64,000 nucleotides of DNA from positions 2,120 through 66,119 of the forward strand of contig REBR01000267.1 of the NCBI GenBank assembly GCA_007692645.1, given 5' to 3'. Position 1 is the first letter of the stretch; every line of letters starts with the position of its first letter. Made by a program: the position numbers and the translations under genes. Positions 13,534 to 40,351 of this stretch are shown piece after piece. The notes below the pieces were generated by a model, which saw only the letters and a program-made list of their open reading frames with translations, ran no database searches and had not been told where the DNA came from. The DNA comes from Halomonadaceae bacterium (GTDB taxonomy: Bacteria; Pseudomonadota; Gammaproteobacteria; Pseudomonadales; Oleiphilaceae).

Positions 13534-14841
13534 ATGTCTTTGTCGTTTGAACTGCAACGTGTCGTTTCCACTCTTTTCAGTTTCCTGGCCCACCTGGTTG
13601 CCCGAGTGTTTGTCCGGCAATCAGGGGAATTGCATGCATTCATCCTGCCCCCTACCGGTGCAGGTAGTGCTGGGGATCAGGCTATGGTTCAGGCGACCGC
13701 GCAGACCTTGTCTGACCGGGGGTTTACCCGAATAGATGTAGTGAGGTATTCACCTGAGGATAATTGGGGGGCCGCTGAAAGATTGTTTACTTCATCTGTT
13801 ACTTGGCCCAGAAAAAGCCCGTTTTCCTGGGTGAGTTTTGCCCTGAAGGTGGCCAGGGGAAGTCATTTCCTGACATTGGGCGCGGATGTACTAGATGGTA
13901 AATACGGTTATATCAAACCCTGGAGAATGCTTGAGGTGTCGTCACTGGCTGCACGACTGGGATTAGACACCCGGATATGTGGCTTTAGTCTCAATAGCAG
14001 CCCGCACCCACAGATGATTCGGGCCTTTAACCGCTTAAGTAAGAAGGTTGTCTGTTATCAATGGGACCCGGTATCGGCGCAGCGCTTTCGGGATTTGACC
14101 GCCAGACAGGGTGTTGAGGTGGCTGATCTGGCCTTTTTGTTATCCCCGGAAAATTCCCCGTTTGTGGCTGAGGTCGGAGAGTGGATAGACGCCAGACGCC
14201 GCCTTGGGGATAAAGTGATGGGGCTTAATCTGAATTATTTACCCTTTGCTGCAATGAAGCTGCAAACAGAGTCTGTTCTGCGTCAGATTACAGAAAATGT
14301 AGGGGTATTGCTCCACAGTGAAGATAACCTATCCCTGGTTTTTGTCCCTCATGACTCAAGGGAAGAGCGTAACGACGTCTGGTTTGCCGGGGAAATTTAC
14401 CAGCGTCTGGATGGTGCGCTAAAACCCCGTTGTCGGCTGATTGAACGGGTGCCAGAGGCTTCTGAAATCAAGGGGGTGGCTTCAATGCTTGATTTTGCCA
14501 TTACCGGCCGTATGCACTTCCTTATTGCACTGATGGGTTCAGGGGTGCCGGGTCTTGGGGTGACATACCAGGGGAAATTCCAGGGTTTGTACCAGCTTTT
14601 TGACATTAAAGGGCTTGGTATAACTCCAAACGAATTTTTGCAACAGGAGCCGTTTCTGGTCAGTGCGAGGAATCTGATTGCTCATTGTGACGACATCCAG
14701 TCACGGCTATCCCGGCAATTGGATGCGGTAAAAAAGCTGTCCATGAGTCAGCTGCCAGTTACGAGTAATCCGAGGACTGGATGCGCTAAAAAAACTGTCC
14801 CTGAGTCAGCTGCCGATAACATCCCTCCAGTGACGGTATAA
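13534..14841 (+). CDS. polysaccharide pyruvyl-transferase-like protein
   Basis: 435-aa ORF with an AAGGA RBS. It has GAGSAGDQAM near the N-terminus and GRMHFLIALMGSGVPGLGVTYQGKF, which resemble the WcaK/CsaB pyruvyl-transferase signatures. GC is visibly lower than in the neighbours. The family call is from recalled motifs only. Confidence 0.6.
   Translation: MSLSFELQRVVSTLFSFLAHLVARVFVRQSGELHAFILPPTGAGSAGDQAMVQATAQTLSDRGFTRIDVVRYSPEDNWGAAERLFTSSVTWPRKSPFSWVSFALKVARGSHFLTLGADVLDGKYGYIKPWRMLEVSSLAARLGLDTRICGFSLNSSPHPQMIRAFNRLSKKVVCYQWDPVSAQRFRDLTARQGVEVADLAFLLSPENSPFVAEVGEWIDARRRLGDKVMGLNLNYLPFAAMKLQTESVLRQITENVGVLLHSEDNLSLVFVPHDSREERNDVWFAGEIYQRLDGALKPRCRLIERVPEASEIKGVASMLDFAITGRMHFLIALMGSGVPGLGVTYQGKFQGLYQLFDIKGLGITPNEFLQQEPFLVSARNLIAHCDDIQSRLSRQLDAVKKLSMSQLPVTSNPRTGCAKKTVPESAADNIPPVTV
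14720..14814. repeat. imperfect 37-bp direct repeat, period 58 bp
   Basis: TGGATGCGGTAAAAAAGCTGTCCATGAGTCAGCTGCC (14720-14756) versus TGGATGCGCTAAAAAAACTGTCCCTGAGTCAGCTGCC (14778-14814). 34 of 37 positions are identical by hand alignment. Confidence 0.85.
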
Positions 14842-15897
14842 GGCGGTTTCGCCAAACAGGTTTTCCAGTTCCTCTTTGGCGGGGGGAGCTTGGTTTTCTG
14901 GGGAAAAGCGACTGCTTTCCACGGCTTTGACTAAATCCGCAATGCCGGATTGGATGTTTATCCAATTCTGGAGACCCTTGTCACTAAGCGCTCTGGCGAA
15001 CGCTGATTCTGTGACAAATAACCGGGTACCACAGGAGAGTGCAAAGAACAGGCTCCCGCTGACGATCATACTTGACTGGTCATTGGCAATGATCACCCCT
15101 GCTGCCCGGCGTACCCGTTCAGCCAGATAGCTTTCATCATGAAAGTCGTCCTCAATGATGACATTCTTACCTTCAGAAGCCGTCTTCAGGCTTTGCAGAT
15201 AACGATTGTCAGTGCAGGGGCCCATGATGGTCAGCTTAGAGGGCAGGGACCATTCAGCGATGACCTCATGGATCCTCTTATAGGGCTCGATTCTTCCAAT
15301 CATTAAGTATTCAGATCCAGGTGCTGGTGCCGTCTGACGTTGCTTCATCACCGTGGTGGAGCTGTATTTAGGCTCATCCAGGGCATAGAGCGGGTGGGGG
15401 ACGTAGTAATAGCCCGGTTTTTGCGCTTCTGCAGGGGAGTGAACCACTACCGCATCCGCCAGTTTTTCACCCCAGGCGATCAACCGAGAGACGCGCAGGA
15501 TATCTTGCCCACGAAGGTTGTGAGGGTGGTGATTGTGTCTTACATAAAACAGTTTTCTGGCTGAGGCGCGATGCAGCAGCATCGAGGCAATATATTCGAA
15601 CACCCCCCGTAACGTCAGGCGATCAGCTGTTGTCAGGCAGTTTTCCCGCCAGTTAACAATAAGAATATCGTACAGCTTTATCTGGGGCCTGAAAAAAACA
15701 TTCCTCAGTAGTGCTCCCAGCAATGCTGCGGGGGCAGGCACAGGAGCTACGGTTCCCAGTTGCGACAGAATCTTGCGGTTCTGGCTGATGTAACTGTTAG
15801 CTTTCAGATCATGGGGCAGGAGGCCGATAATAGGCGCTGATTTTATTCCCGCTGATTGTATGTCAATGGTCATTGTCTCGTCCGTGAGATTGTTCAA
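14806..15897 (-). CDS. glycosyltransferase-like protein (GT-B/GT4-like)
   Basis: 363-aa ORF. YLMIGRIEPYKRIHEVI resembles the GRL..KG...LI motif of GT4 enzymes. It has lower GC. The 3-prime end overlaps the convergent gene by 36 bp. The start is either TTG at 15897 or ATG at 15873. Confidence 0.5.
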   Translation of the reverse strand: MNNLTDETMTIDIQSAGIKSAPIIGLLPHDLKANSYISQNRKILSQLGTVAPVPAPAALLGALLRNVFFRPQIKLYDILIVNWRENCLTTADRLTLRGVFEYIASMLLHRASARKLFYVRHNHHPHNLRGQDILRVSRLIAWGEKLADAVVVHSPAEAQKPGYYYVPHPLYALDEPKYSSTTVMKQRQTAPAPGSEYLMIGRIEPYKRIHEVIAEWSLPSKLTIMGPCTDNRYLQSLKTASEGKNVIIEDDFHDESYLAERVRRAAGVIIANDQSSMIVSGSLFFALSCGTRLFVTESAFARALSDKGLQNWINIQSGIADLVKAVESSRFSPENQAPPAKEELENLFGETALYRHWRDVIGS

Positions 15898-16000: not shown

Positions 16001-16035
16001 TATAAAACAACGCCGCCCAGGTAGCTGGCGGCGTT
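16001..16035 (-). terminator. rho-independent terminator ending the MCP-porin-PBP operon
   Basis: Stem AACGCCGCC / GGCGGCGTT. On the minus strand it is followed by GTTTTATA. Confidence 0.6.
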
Positions 16036-16074
16036 ATCTGTTTCTGGTTAAGTGCTTGGCCGGGCAAGAGCCGA

Positions 16075-16470
16075 TTAAGGTGTCAGGATCACAGTGACAG
16101 AGTCATCCACATCATCTGCCATCAGGTAGCCGATGGCCGAAGGATCATTGGCAACAGCAGACTTCATGGCGCTGGCGGAGCTGACTTCCTCAGGAGGCTC
16201 ACCTTCACCGGTAAACATCTGTTGGGCCCAGAATGACCGCAGCTGTGCTTCAGTCCGCCCGGTAACCGAGCTGTGGAAGGCGGCGCGCTCATCTGTGCCT
16301 TGCACCATTTCGATGGGGGTGGCGGAACGGTTACGGTTCAGGTAAATGTTGCGAACCTCGTTTTCTGACAGGCCTGACACACCGCTCGGGTGGGCGATAA
16401 TCACAATGTCCGCTGCAGCCAGGGGAGATATCACCAATGCAGCCAGGGCAAGAATTCTAAACAGTTTCAT
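16075..16470 (-). CDS. secreted half-size PstS-fold (type 2 periplasmic-binding-fold) protein
   Basis: 131 aa with a signal peptide (MKLFRILALAALVISPLAAA). The motifs LSENEVRNIYLNR and NDPSAIGYL match those of PstS-family binding proteins (compare GNPGAIGYV in the PstS paralogue at 39533), at less than half their length. Confidence 0.65.
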   Translation of the reverse strand: MKLFRILALAALVISPLAAADIVIIAHPSGVSGLSENEVRNIYLNRNRSATPIEMVQGTDERAAFHSSVTGRTEAQLRSFWAQQMFTGEGEPPEEVSSASAMKSAVANDPSAIGYLMADDVDDSVTVILTP

Positions 16471-16481
16471 AGCAAGTCTCC

Positions 16482-17666
16482 TTAAAACGCCGCATCGAGT
16501 GTGAGGGTGTAAACGTTGGTATGGCTGAAGCGAACGTTACCGGTCGCATCCCGGTTATTGTCCAGCCCGCCGTCGGTCTGACCAAAGGAGCGGGAATGGG
16601 TCCAGTCAGCTTTTACCGCAATGCCAGGCATGATGTCGTAACGCACACCGAGGCTATAATCTTCGCGCTTCACGTTGAGAAATGATTGTTGTAACCCGGA
16701 CTCCAGCACCTGGCCATCGCGGTTTGAATCATCCTGGGTCTCAATCCATGCTGCCGTCACATAAGGCATGATATTGCCCAAGCGATAACCACCGGTAATA
16801 TAGGCAGAGTCCTGATCGGCGAAAATTCCCTGCACTTTTCGGCGGGTGGCTTCAGAAATCAGCAAAATGTTACCTTCGCTGTATTCCAGGCCCAGGCCAT
16901 AGAATTCCCCTTCGTAATCATCATTAAGGCTGATGAAGTCAAAGCTCGCGTCGGCACGTGCTGCGACGCCTCGAAGGGTCCAGGTGTAATCGGTCCACGT
17001 CATCACGCCACCGACCAGGTTTCTAAGTTCGATACGCGTGATGGCACCGGCAACGTCAACATCATTGCTGCTATGGCCACTGAAAACCTGAGTTCGCATA
17101 GTGCCGTCGCCCAGCTGGTAGCTGTACGTCGCATCTGCCCCGGTATAGTTGCTCAGTCTGATCTGGTCATACACGACCAGTGGCGAGCGCGCCCAGGGTT
17201 GGGCATAACCCAGTTCCAGGGCATCTGAATACATAAAAAACGGTAAGCGCATCTGTCCTGCACGAAGCCGCACACCATTGTCCAGATTGTGGGTCAGGTA
17301 GCCCCATTCCAGTTGGGTTTCAAACTCGTTGCGGCCATCATCCTGGCCCCGGGCAACCAGCTGTACCGTAGCATTTGTTGCATCGCTGATATCAAACCGA
17401 CCCTGAATGGCAAAAAGGGTCAGGGACTGGGCTTCGGATGTTTCAGTAATCCCATCATATCCAGCATCGTTACTGGCCCGGGCAATCCCGGTGCTCATAA
17501 AGCCGTTGAAGCGGACCCTGTCCTGGCCGGCTGCGCGGACATCTTGTTGCATGGAATCCACGCGTGCTTCCAGCTGCTTTATGCGGGCATCGTCAGCCTG
17601 GACGGTTGCGGCGACCGCCAGCAGGCACAGAACCAGAGGGGATTTGCGCATGATCGACTTTTTCAT
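16482..17666 (-). CDS. outer-membrane porin with N-terminal periplasmic coiled coil (DcaP-like architecture)
   Basis: 394 aa with a signal peptide (AVAATVQA/DD) and a heptad-like segment (ARIKQLEARVDSMQQDV). The body has alternating beta-strand character and ends in a C-terminal Phe (TLDAAF). It lies 11 bp upstream of the small PBP gene. Confidence 0.7.
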   Translation of the reverse strand: MKKSIMRKSPLVLCLLAVAATVQADDARIKQLEARVDSMQQDVRAAGQDRVRFNGFMSTGIARASNDAGYDGITETSEAQSLTLFAIQGRFDISDATNATVQLVARGQDDGRNEFETQLEWGYLTHNLDNGVRLRAGQMRLPFFMYSDALELGYAQPWARSPLVVYDQIRLSNYTGADATYSYQLGDGTMRTQVFSGHSSNDVDVAGAITRIELRNLVGGVMTWTDYTWTLRGVAARADASFDFISLNDDYEGEFYGLGLEYSEGNILLISEATRRKVQGIFADQDSAYITGGYRLGNIMPYVTAAWIETQDDSNRDGQVLESGLQQSFLNVKREDYSLGVRYDIMPGIAVKADWTHSRSFGQTDGGLDNNRDATGNVRFSHTNVYTLTLDAAF

Positions 17667-17731
17667 GGTACTACTTACTCCATTGAGGTTTTGAAGGTTG
17701 CCTTAACGTCAGAATGAGGCAGGCTGGGTGA

Positions 17732-19345
17732 TTACACCCGGAATTGAGAAGAGACTTTATGCAGGCGGCTGCTGATGTCGTGGCTGTCACGGCTGAAACG
17801 GTCCAGCTCGTGTGTGCTCTCGGTCACCAGCTTGGCCACTTCATGGATTTCACTGAAGTGCCCGACTACGCCGGTAAAGGTCATGCTTTGTTCATGAGTG
17901 GCTGCAGCAATCTGCTCGTTGATGCTGCTGATGTTCTCCACGTTGGTGAGGATGCGCTCAAGCATCTCGCCAGATTCCTTGGTGGAGTTCAGTCCGCTAT
18001 GGGCTTTCTGAACGCTGGCCTCCATTGCCTTTACGGATGAGGCGGACAGTCGCGAGAGTTCATCAATCACAGTTTCTATTTCTTCAGCAGATTTCTTGGT
18101 GCGCACTGCCAGGCCGCGCACTTCATCCGCAACAACCGCAAAACCACGGCCATGTTCACCGGCCCGGGCAGCTTCAATGGCTGCGTTCAAGGCAAGCAGG
18201 TTGGTCTGTTCGGTGACCGCTTTAATGGTATCCAGCAGGCCGGCAACCCGTGCGGAATGGGTTTCGAATTCATTGACCAGTCTGGCGGTCTGTTCGATCT
18301 CACCGGTCAGATCTTCAATAGTGCCGATATTGGAAGTGACATGGTCTTTGCCCTGACTGGCAAAGCGTGCTGCGTCCTGGGTTTGATCGGAGGCGTCGGT
18401 GGCAAAGCCGGCTACTTCTTCCACGCTCTTTACCAACTCGTCCACGGAGTGCCGGGCTGCCGCTATTGCGGTTGACTGGTCATTGATGCGGTCGAGATTA
18501 CTGCGGCTGGCATCGGACAGTTTTACCGACACCTCCTGCAATCCATGCACATCGTGAATAATGGTGCCAAATGACTCATGGAGCTTCGCCACAAAAGCAT
18601 TAAAGTGGGTCACCAGATCGTTCAGTTCATCTTTGCCGGTGTATTCAATCCGTGAGGTAAGATCTCCTTCCCCGTGGGCCATGTCCCGTAGCGATCGGGT
18701 AACCCGGTTGAGGCTTCTGGTAATCGATCCGCCGATTAGCAGGCTCAGACCAATCAGTACGATGATGGCTATCACCATGATGATGACGTTGACCCTGCTG
18801 CTTTGGTCGGTCAGTGCAATGGTGTCAGCGATGGAGCGGGTGAAATTTTCCCGGGTCTCATCCCGCAACTGGGTCATGCTCTTGGTGAGTGCGTTTAACC
18901 GCTCAGCATTGGCAGATGCGTCAGCGCCGAGGCGCCGGAAATCACCATCGCCATCAATGAACGCGGTAGCGATACGCACAGCATTGTTGTAGTAGGTGCT
19001 GAGGTCCCGTTCCAGATCATTCAGGCGACTGCCCATAGCCGGGGACAGGGTTCGCAGCTCATCAATATTGGCGCTGATTACCCGGTGATATTCGGCGGTA
19101 TCCGCCAGCTGATTATCGTCCCCTGTTGTCACAGCGCTGTTGATCTGGGCTTCCATGAGTTCAAGCTGACCAAGATTAATGGTGGTCCGCTCCAGCGTAG
19201 GGTAGAGCTGCTGATCGACTTCCTGAAGGCGCTCGGCATTTTGCGAATGGGTCACCAGTGCAAATCCCAGAGTTACCACAAAAGTAAAAACCGCTGTGGC
19301 GACCAGCAAGGCGAGTTTATGGGAAATCTTCAGTCGGGAGAGCAT
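17732..19345 (-). CDS. methyl-accepting chemotaxis protein
   Basis: 537 aa with two TM segments flanking a helical periplasmic domain of about 170 aa, then a HAMP domain. The highly conserved signalling hairpin reads [32 protein letters not shown]. Confidence 0.93.
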
Positions 19346-19582
19346 GGGGTTTTATCCGCTTATGGGTGCTAGTGGACGGCATAGTTATTACTTACCCGCA
19401 ATATCTCAACCACCGGGTGTTACTTAAGGTAACGCGAGGGTCAGTTTGGCTGGATTCTGTGACTGCTTCAGGTAGGTATGTCTTTGAAAAGATAGGTTTT
19501 GCAAGAATTCCTGCTGGTTTCAGGCAGTTACAAATTAGCTGGAGTAGTAAAGTGGTTTTTCCTGCATTTTGGGTGGATCAAT

Positions 19583-19617
19583 AAAAACGCCGCCTGGCAT
19601 AACCAGGCGGCGTTTTT
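19583..19617. terminator. bidirectional terminator downstream of acnB
   Basis: Perfect hairpin AAAAACGCCGCCTGG-CATAA-CCAGGCGGCGTTTTT with A/T runs on both sides. A second hairpin, GCCGGGCA-GGGGG-TGCCCGGC, lies at 19621-19641. Confidence 0.75.
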
Positions 19618-19663
19618 ATTGCCGGGCAGGGGGTGCCCGGCTTTTTGCGACTTCGTCAGAGGA

Positions 19664-39532: not shown

Positions 39533-40351
39533 ATGTCGACAGTCCCCCGGTTCTTCCCTGTAATGTTAGTGGTGCTGTTTCTCAGTGGCTGCGGTAAACC
39601 CCAGCATGACACTCTGGTGCTGACGGGTTCCAGCACCGTGGCGCCCCTGATCAGTGATTTGGCGGCAGATTTTGAGGCCCTGAACCCGGGGGTTCGGGTG
39701 GATGTACAAAGCGGTGGCAGCAGCCGGGGGCTCGCCGATGTACGCCAGGGAACGGCGGCTCTGGGTATGATTTCAAGGGAGCTGAGATCTGAGGAGTCAG
39801 GCTTGCAGGCCCATGTAATCGCCCGGGATGGCATCAGCCTGCTGGTGCATGCCCGCAACCCGGTGACAGAGCTCTCTGACGAACAGGTGCGTCGGCTGTT
39901 TCGCGGGGAAATTGCCAACTGGCAGGAAGTGACCGATTTCGATGCCCGGGTCAGCATTGTGCATAAGGGGGAAGGGCGGGCTACTCTGGATGTCTTTCTG
40001 GCTTATTTCGCCCTGCATAACCGGGACGTGAAAGCAGATTTGATTGTCGGCGAAAACCAGCAGGGCATTCGCTCTGTGGCGGGCAACCCCGGGGCCATAG
40101 GCTATGTATCTATTGGGTCGGCCAATTATGAGATTGCTCAGGGGGTGCCGGTAAAGGGGTTGGCTATTGCCGGCGTTGCGCCGGATGCAACGGCGATTGC
40201 CCAGGGGGATTATCCCCTGAGCCGCAATCTGAATCTGGTCACTCAGGGGGAGCTAGGGGGGCTGGCGGCAGACTTTGTCGCCTACGCCCGTTCCCCCCAA
40301 GCCCATGAGCGCATTCAGCAGCACTTTTTCACGCCTGTGGTGAACCCCTGA
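39533..40351 (+). CDS. pstS: PstS-family substrate-binding lipoprotein (Pst paralogue)
   Basis: The ATG at 39533 follows AGGAG. It has a lipobox (LSGC) plus GSSTVAPL, GGSSRG and GAIGYVS motifs. The ORF-track start at 39488 is less likely. Confidence 0.85.
   Translation: MSTVPRFFPVMLVVLFLSGCGKPQHDTLVLTGSSTVAPLISDLAADFEALNPGVRVDVQSGGSSRGLADVRQGTAALGMISRELRSEESGLQAHVIARDGISLLVHARNPVTELSDEQVRRLFRGEIANWQEVTDFDARVSIVHKGEGRATLDVFLAYFALHNRDVKADLIVGENQQGIRSVAGNPGAIGYVSIGSANYEIAQGVPVKGLAIAGVAPDATAIAQGDYPLSRNLNLVTQGELGGLAADFVAYARSPQAHERIQQHFFTPVVNP

Follow-up and report, generated by a model that had tools for sequence, protein, structure and literature searches.

Organisation of the operon

The DNA analysed here is a stretch of 64,000 nucleotides from a Halomonadaceae bacterium (GenBank assembly GCA_007692645.1, contig REBR01000267.1, positions 2,120 to 66,119), referred to throughout as the window. 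Its minus strand carries three adjacent genes, encoding a methyl-accepting chemotaxis protein (MCP), an outer-membrane porin, and a small secreted protein that is related to a single lobe of the phosphate-binding protein PstS. The cassette formed by these three genes is real and conserved. Its components are of familiar kinds, newly combined, and the function proposed for it is one that we infer. The features of the operon are as follows.

17732–19345, minus strand: MCP gene, from the list of open reading frames; 537 residues, with a first transmembrane segment, a periplasmic helical sensor, a second transmembrane segment, a HAMP domain and a signalling domain
18797–19249, minus strand: periplasmic sensor domain of the MCP, approximately residues 33–183, of an unclassified four-helix-bundle type
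16482–17666, minus strand: porin gene; 394 residues, a 16-strand barrel according to the AlphaFold model and Foldseek
17517–17591, minus strand: N-terminal periplasmic helix of the porin, residues 26–50 in the AlphaFold model, a probable coiled coil
17151–17246, minus strand: porin loop between strands 5 and 6, residues 141–172, in the position of the L3 constriction loop, from the strand positions of the model and from conservation
16075–16470, minus strand: gene of the small protein; 131 residues, secreted, one-lobe PstS fold, signal peptide at approximately residues 1–20
16001–16035, minus strand: intrinsic terminator 3' of the small gene, read from the sequence as AACGCCGCC..GGCGGCGTT followed by GTTTTAT
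19443–19470, minus strand: degenerate sigma-28-like element (TGAAG, 15 nt, GCCAAACT), 97 nt upstream of the MCP start and below the scan threshold

An initial annotation, made from the sequence alone, had described three minus-strand open reading frames separated by 65 and 11 bp and followed by a terminator at 16001–16035, and all of this agrees with the list of open reading frames and with a fresh reading of the sequence. The larger gap (17667–17731) separates the MCP and porin genes, and the smaller (16471–16481) the porin and small genes. The terminator is a G+C-rich minus-strand hairpin of 9 bp at approximately 16001–16035, running into GTTTTAT. In this region a scan for consensus terminators lists only a plus-strand hairpin, at 16018–16040; our guess is that the minus-strand hairpin was missed because its loop is 9 nt by our reading, and the limit of the scan is 8. 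The same scan lists no terminator-like site within the 65-bp or the 11-bp gap, and the gene upstream, acnB (aconitase), has its own terminator at approximately 19587–19641. The operon should therefore start between 19346 and approximately 19580, and the three genes should form one transcription unit. The nucleotide composition of the region is unremarkable. All three open reading frames have many homologues at very low E-values, and therefore none of them is a chance open reading frame.

The small protein

The small protein consists of 131 residues, including its signal peptide. As a single sequence it falls below the Pfam thresholds, including that of PBP_like_2, and its resemblance to PstS1 of S. 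pneumoniae is only weak (E 0.059). When a profile built from 70 members of the family is compared with the Protein Data Bank, it matches the PstS proteins 4exl, 4q8r, 4gd5, 1twy and 4ecf with E-values of 7e-9 to 3e-6. These matches cover one lobe only, corresponding to approximately residues 72–218 of chains of 252–290 residues. When the structural model of the protein is submitted to Foldseek, ranks 1 to 16 are all PstS or phosphate-binding proteins, with a best E-value of 1.5e-5 and a template-modelling score of 0.58. The relationship to PstS and PBP_like_2 thus holds in both sequence and fold, as the initial annotation had proposed for a secreted protein of less than two-lobe length. At 131 residues the protein does not have the hinged, two-lobe organisation of approximately 250–350 residues that is characteristic of PstS. 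A YfiR-like fold was considered as well, and rejected: the fold matches are PstS and other class II binding-protein folds, with no YfiR among the 50 listed.

The profile alignment also covers the ligand positions of PstS. The sequence EMVQGTDE of the window protein (family consensus DQAEGSAA) lies opposite SREDGSGT of 4q8r and 4gd5, which we take to be the phosphate-ligand motif of that lobe (Arg135, Asp137 and Ser139-Gly140-Thr141 in E. coli PstS numbering). The ligand positions are replaced, Arg by Met/Gln and Asp by Gln/Glu, and in the window protein Gly-Thr is replaced by Asp-Glu, with Asp/Glu at the start of the helix. It is therefore unlikely that the protein binds phosphate in the way PstS does, and judging from these replacements the ligand is probably not phosphate. 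Because one lobe cannot close on a ligand, any binding site would need a second copy of the protein, the porin or the tip of the receptor.

Compared with PstS, the family has an insertion of approximately 10 residues around a conserved GxPP. The alignment of 70 sequences contains nine invariant positions, which include F65, W81, G88, G90, P92, P93, G114 and Y115. In the motif W-x4-F-T-G-x-G-x-P-P, W81, G88, G90, P92 and P93 are invariant, and F86 and T87 are nearly so. An exhaustive search found 3,406 clusters at 50% identity with E-values up to 1e-3 (674 with E-values up to 1e-10), and nearly all of the clusters listed have lengths of 127–150 residues. A search with the family profile finds 3,374 proteins, of which those that are named are called 'phosphate ABC transporter substrate-binding protein'. 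Both the signal peptide and the position in the operon are conserved among the relatives. The source genome has a single copy of the small gene, with no paralogue, and two full-length PBP_like_2 genes elsewhere. One of these, a PstS-type gene unrelated to the operon, lies within the window at approximately 39599–40294 on the plus strand (E 1.3e-37), and the other is on another contig.

These observations dispose of the idea that the 131-residue gene is a decayed and functionless fragment of pstS, an outcome that the initial annotation had itself singled out for checking. The gene product is less than half as long as PstS and misses the PBP_like_2 threshold, as a fragment would. However, a fragment would not be expected to have 3,406 clusters of relatives of equal length with nine invariant positions, a conserved signal peptide and operon position, and up to 10 copies in a genome, and full-length PBP_like_2 genes are present elsewhere in the same genome. 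We regard this explanation as refuted, with a negligible chance of being correct.

The porin

No Pfam or NCBIfam family was found for the porin: against the Pfam porin models, with E-values allowed up to 10, the only match was OMP_b-brl at 0.91. The AlphaFold model has a predicted local distance difference test score (pLDDT) of 85.7. It shows a helix at residues 26–50, followed by 16 strands, with a long loop (residues 141–172) after strand 5. Foldseek matches this model to many trimeric porins, among them OmpT, OmpU, VhChiP, OmpF, PorB, Omp32 and OprP at E-values of around 1e-12, those for OprP and OprO being 7e-12 and 1.3e-11. The model therefore has the general-porin fold, as defined by 16 strands and a loop after strand 5, whereas the Pfam family PF13609 (Porin_4) is matched only weakly, and in some of the relatives, among the 112 homologues found. 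The loop at 141–172, which is a putative constriction loop, forms a dense conserved run among 56 homologues, in which P142, F144, M145, S147, G153, Y154, R160, P162, V165 and Y166 are invariant or nearly so. The porin has no lipobox, and the source genome contains no second porin gene of the same family.

The initial annotation described this protein as a coiled-coil porin with a DcaP-like architecture. DcaP of Acinetobacter baumannii has an N-terminal periplasmic coiled coil, and both DcaP and the OprP and OprO porins of Pseudomonas aeruginosa have a porin-type 16-strand barrel like that of the window porin model. The architecture is thus as described, with its helix at 26–50 and its 16-strand barrel, but this does not extend to membership of the DcaP family by sequence, and no DcaP structure is among the 50 fold matches listed. 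The window porin differs from DcaP and OprP in belonging to no Pfam porin family and in having a helix of only approximately 25 residues, for which we note a weak and non-significant likeness to the Lpp coiled coil. OmpT, OmpU and OmpF match the model as well as OprP does, or better.

The receptor and its sensor domain

The receptor has the features of a methyl-accepting chemotaxis protein: a HAMP domain (residues 203–257, E 4.1e-12) and a signalling domain (MCPsignal, residues 322–503, E 1.2e-40) are identified by Pfam, and two hydrophobic segments, read from the sequence at approximately residues 10–32 and 184–206, flank a periplasmic sensor. It had initially been annotated as a canonical MCP with a four-helix-type sensor of about 170 residues; the HAMP and MCPsignal matches bear out the first part, and the periplasmic stretch is closer to 150 residues. 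The NCBIfam model CtpM covers residues 181–537 only.

The periplasmic domain of the receptor has no Pfam family, and a profile search finds no solved structure related to it. Weak matches to TarH are seen in 6 of 18 relatives (best E 1e-4), and the window domain itself does not reach the Pfam threshold for TarH or 4HB_MCP. We consider it to be a helical-bundle domain of an unclassified family, with a predicted four-helix topology. Its invariant residues are P49, G75 and D135. From the predicted helices, G75 and D135 would be placed in the loops between helices 1 and 2 and between helices 3 and 4, at the membrane-distal tip. In Tar the tip of the sensor bundle is the place where the maltose-binding protein (MBP) docks.

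In a sample of 300 gammaproteobacterial genomes (described below) the domain has 33 matches in 27 genomes, and a comparison of the coordinate tables places 24 of the 33 within 3 kb of a small gene, rising to 23 of 27 for matches with E-values up to 1e-18. The proteins that carry it are MCPs, HAMP-kinases with receiver domains, and one HAMP-GGDEF protein. The profile also matches the N-terminus of a hybrid histidine kinase (E 4e-23) that is encoded beside an unrelated pair of porin and small genes. The four-helix sensor-domain family is thus largely confined to the neighbourhood of the cassette.

Conservation and gene neighbourhoods

We compared 79 related loci, taking one genome per species, each encoding a close relative. 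The MCP, porin and small genes are found together in 71 of the 79, nearly always in the order seen in the window. The trio occurs in Marinobacter, Tamilnaduibacter, Marinospirillum, Oceanospirillum, Gilvimarinus and other Cellvibrionaceae, Shewanella and Ferrimonas. The order is small-porin-MCP in Aliiglaciecola and porin-small-MCP in Janthinobacterium, while Shewanella maritima has MCP, porin, small, porin and small, and Marinobacter has an additional pair of porin and small genes with no sensor. More distant members of the small family adjoin histidine kinases and GGDEF-EAL proteins. Beside the small gene, both in the window and in the annotated related loci, there are no genes for the permease or ATPase of an ATP-binding cassette (ABC) transporter, such as pstCAB.

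A wider census was made of 300 evenly drawn gammaproteobacterial genomes, in which the surroundings of 116 copies of the small gene were inspected and the neighbours classed using profiles that we built ourselves; the counts are lower bounds, because of contig ends and because barrels were detected heuristically. The small gene is present in 71 of the 300 genomes, with up to 10 copies per genome. Its commonest neighbour is a gene for an outer-membrane barrel, often at a gap of around 10 bp: this is the case for 76 of the 116 copies, 67 of them next to a porin of the window family and 9 next to another barrel-like protein; of these 9 barrels, one scores above the Pfam threshold for phosphate porins O/P. 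Of the 116 copies, 58 have an MCP, kinase or GGDEF/EAL gene within 1.8 kb. Both the conserved linkage and the association with porin and MCP, GGDEF or histidine kinase genes had been put forward as tests in the initial annotation, and the 71 of 79 loci and the 76 and 58 of 116 copies answer them favourably.

The clades of the small protein correspond to the type of partner. One clade of 25 small proteins (support 100/99) is found mostly with dCache_3-PAS-GGDEF-EAL proteins, in the order small-porin-enzyme, and another of 11 (support 99/98) mostly with dCache_1 kinases. Since the partner sensors carry 4HB-type, dCache_1 or dCache_3 domains, we rejected the possibility that the small protein is half of a split binding protein whose missing lobe is on the sensor. 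Tandem small genes recur, and together with tandem small domains (see below) they fit a unit of two copies.

Several individual loci are worth noting. Two related genomes have the order MCP-small-barrel (locus L100, 2826–3914, plus strand; locus L112, 3395–4483, minus strand); the barrel of L100 is of a different family and passes the Pfam threshold for phosphate-selective porins O/P, and that of L112 is nearly identical to it at both ends. In genome G117 (locus L104, 3764–4487, minus strand) the sensor gene is broken by a TAG stop and the porin is in fragments, and this cassette looks like a decaying copy. Two related genomes, G011 and G230 (loci L105, L109, L118, L128, L138 and L149), have 8–10 small genes; some of these lie in arrays in which each small gene is accompanied by two or three porin genes.

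Fusions of the small domain

The small domain is also found fused to other proteins. In three genomes, from three families, it is the N-terminal domain of a secreted lytic transglycosylase resembling MltD.

L094, 2462–5053, plus strand: MltD-like fusion with an SLT domain and two LysM domains
L095, 2279–4681, plus strand: MltD-like fusion with an SLT domain and two LysM domains
L096, 2077–3738, plus strand: shorter MltD-like fusion with an SLT domain only, no LysM domain being found
L097, 2581–4323, minus strand: J-domain fusion, with a J-domain, a transmembrane segment, a linker and a C-terminal small domain; a barrel gene lies alongside

The two longer MltD-like fusions match NF008050 with E-values of 1e-89 and 1e-90, and the E-value for the SLT-only fusion is 7e-51; in L094 the MltD match begins at profile position 9. 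The longer fusions have a spacer of approximately 230–250 residues, rich in Ala/Lys or Lys/Ser, between the small domain and the enzyme, and the genes of both lie directly 3' of a porin gene. No porin gene was detected beside the L096 fusion. Since E. coli MltD is an outer-membrane lipoprotein, the small domain occupies the place of the lipid anchor, and the fusion N-termini that were read showed no lipobox. The simplest reading of these sequences is that the small domain holds the MltD-like enzyme at the outer membrane by binding to the porin. The fusions therefore suggest docking to a porin at least as much as carriage of a ligand. There is a partial parallel in MltF, in which a full two-lobe module of the amino-acid-binding type is packed on the transglycosylase enzyme. 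In both cases a module with a binding-protein fold is joined to an SLT domain; unlike MltF, the MltD fusions have a single PstS-type lobe, a spacer of up to approximately 250 residues, and a location at the place of the MltD lipid anchor.

Protein P0226, a BlaR1-type M56 protein, has two tandem small domains at its C-terminal end. A further candidate, a 512-residue fusion at L098, was rejected as an over-long open reading frame in G+C-rich DNA.

The fusions bear on the suggestion, made in the initial annotation, that the cassette is a ligand shuttle. In the classical form of this idea a substrate-specific porin would admit a solute, and the small protein, probably dimeric, would bind it and hand it to the receptor, as MBP does for Tar or PstS for CtpL, without docking stably to the porin. 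The binding-protein fold of the small protein and the conserved putative constriction loop of the porin, which is as expected of a specific channel, are both in keeping with this suggestion, as are the variant cassette whose barrel passes the phosphate porin O/P threshold and the recurrent tandem domains and genes, which would suit a binding unit of two copies. In addition, there is precedent for binding proteins that stimulate MCPs, kinases and c-di-GMP (cyclic di-GMP) enzymes (PMC8050422). However, a single lobe is unable to enclose a ligand, and the PstS ligand positions of the lobe are replaced in the window protein. Neither the tight spacing of the porin and small genes nor a long-spacer MltD fusion that replaces a lipid anchor would be expected for a free carrier; no ABC transporter genes are seen beside the pair in the surveyed loci; and it is the barrel gene that is the most consistent partner, roughly one third of copies having a barrel and no nearby sensor. 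We therefore consider the shuttle unlikely.

The promoter region and neighbouring genes

A sigma-28-type promoter precedes 32 of 69 orthologous operons, compared with 7% of shuffled sequences. In at least 22 Marinobacter loci it takes the form TAAAG-N14/15-GCCGATAC or GCCGACAA, at a fixed 93–106 nt from the MCP start; loci with the conserved promoter include L012, L016–L030, L035, L036 and L071. In the window and in Tamilnaduibacter the promoter is either missing or degenerate. Inspection by eye of the region upstream of the MCP gene gave no convincing match to a Pho box. The source genome has seven CheW-domain matches, and chemotaxis machinery is thus available to the receptor. Immediately beyond the 3' end of the operon, at 13534–15897 of the window, are convergent genes, one encoding a pyruvyl-transferase-like protein (PF04230) and the other an unclassified protein of 363 residues.

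Comparison with known systems

The initial annotation could not match the operon to any described system. We likewise found no description of a porin combined with a truncated PstS and a sensor in the papers searched, subscription journals being mostly outside their reach. Neither porins nor truncated binding proteins are mentioned in a review from 2021 on the part that binding proteins play in signal transduction (PMC8050422).

The closest parallels among chemoreceptors are the LamB-MBP-Tar system of E. coli maltose taxis and the PstS-CtpL system of Pseudomonas aeruginosa phosphate taxis, in both of which a periplasmic protein with a binding-protein fold connects the exterior to a chemoreceptor whose periplasmic domain is helical. 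The former has a dedicated porin upstream of the binding protein, as in the cassette, and the binding protein of the latter belongs to the same fold family, PBP_like_2, as the small protein (PMC8050422). However, MBP and PstS have both lobes and in addition supply ABC transporters, and they are encoded alongside the transporter and not the receptor (PMC8050422). The cassette by comparison has one lobe, in which the ligand positions are replaced, and no nearby transporter gene, and its porin, small protein and receptor are encoded in one operon.

A second group of parallels comes from switches at the outer membrane. In the YfiB-YfiR-YfiN (TpbB) system of Pseudomonas and E. coli, and the RcsF-OmpA/C/F-IgaA system of enterobacteria, an inner-membrane partner is gated by the sequestration of a small protein at the outer membrane. 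These systems share with the cassette a three-part layout, in which a protein of the outer membrane and a signalling protein of the inner membrane are accompanied by a small one that is periplasmic or associated with the outer membrane, but they have no homology to it. YfiB and RcsF are both lipoproteins, the former OmpA-like, whereas the cassette has a 16-strand porin and a soluble PstS-fold lobe, and its outputs are chemotaxis, kinases or c-di-GMP enzymes. Nor does the cassette belong to the YfiBNR type: YfiR does not feature in the 50 best fold matches listed, and the outer-membrane partner is a porin lacking a lipobox. By analogy, the cassette appears in function most to resemble binding-protein-dependent chemoreception and outer-membrane sequestration switches, although it is a member of neither.

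A possible mechanism

On the basis of these observations, we propose that the window copy of the cassette is a conserved envelope-sensing unit, in which the small one-lobe PstS-fold protein acts as a hub between the porin and the receptor. We propose this because the small gene, the barrel gene and the transducer genes are linked, because the sensor domain travels with them, and because the fusions appear either to anchor or to sense. We judge the proposal about equally likely to be right or wrong. The small protein would dock on the periplasmic face of its porin, and would also act on the receptor, most likely at the membrane-distal tip of the sensor, where G75 and D135 are predicted to lie. 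The two sites would be too far apart to touch, and the small protein must therefore move between them. The receptor would then read the distribution of the small protein between porin and sensor tip, which might depend on a solute that passes through or sits in the porin, or on the condition of the outer membrane, and would signal on to the CheA/CheW machinery and thus to swimming behaviour.

A number of observations weigh against this proposal. For 35 of the 116 copies in the census there is a porin and no sensor within 1.8 kb, and such a pair can therefore work without an adjacent sensor; for approximately 40 of the 116 no barrel gene was detected alongside, 10 of these being at the ends of contigs or stretches. 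The clades that correspond to partner types indicate a long-term association, which can be produced by vertical inheritance of the whole operon alone. The receptor domain reaches only approximately 8 nm from the inner membrane, and movement of the small protein is assumed. Confidence in the structural model of the small protein is low (pLDDT 63). Finally, the scan finds no clear sigma-28 promoter in the window, where there is only the degenerate element at the homologous position.

The occurrence of the pair alone in many genomes would also be explained if there were no signalling link at all, the porin and small protein being a pair for uptake or for maintenance of the outer membrane, and the receptor sensing a ligand of its own, possibly the same one, with which they are merely co-regulated. 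The neighbours include sensors with the ordinary ligand-binding domains dCache_1 and dCache_3, and it is generally known that MCP genes are often neighbours of genes through which their ligands are taken up or metabolised. However, this would not account for an unclassified sensor domain that is largely confined to this neighbourhood and appears there on three types of output, nor for the presence of a transducer within 1.8 kb of half of the copies, compared with around 10% expected by our rough estimate. Moreover, in the BlaR1-like and J-domain membrane proteins it is the small domain that makes up the extracytoplasmic end. On these grounds the absence of any link seems to us improbable.

The hub proposal can be extended to the family as a whole. 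The one-lobe PstS-fold domain may be a general adaptor that plugs a dedicated porin into many periplasmic and inner-membrane effectors, namely chemoreceptors, histidine kinases, c-di-GMP enzymes, MltD-type enzymes, J-domain proteins and BlaR1-like proteases. We offer this broader idea tentatively, as a possibility that we would on balance expect not to hold.

Implications

The new observations reported here are the fusions to MltD, J-domain and M56 proteins, the finding that 24 of 33 sensor-domain matches lie close to a small gene, the replaced ligand positions, and the sigma-28 promoters of Marinobacter. The cassette is present in about a quarter of the gammaproteobacterial genomes sampled, with outputs to chemotaxis, two-component and c-di-GMP signalling. 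Its genes currently bear the annotations 'phosphate ABC transporter substrate-binding protein', which is a misleading name, and 'hypothetical protein'. A stable single lobe of the binding-protein fold would bear on the origin of the two-lobe binding proteins.

To our knowledge, few systems are known that signal from the outer membrane to an inner-membrane sensor, these being Rcs, YfiBNR and TonB-dependent trans-envelope signalling. If the small protein does couple the porin to sensors, many orphan receptors with the unclassified domain would gain a candidate input. If it is in addition a general adaptor, the cassette would represent a previously unrecognised route by which events at outer-membrane channels are reported across the periplasm.

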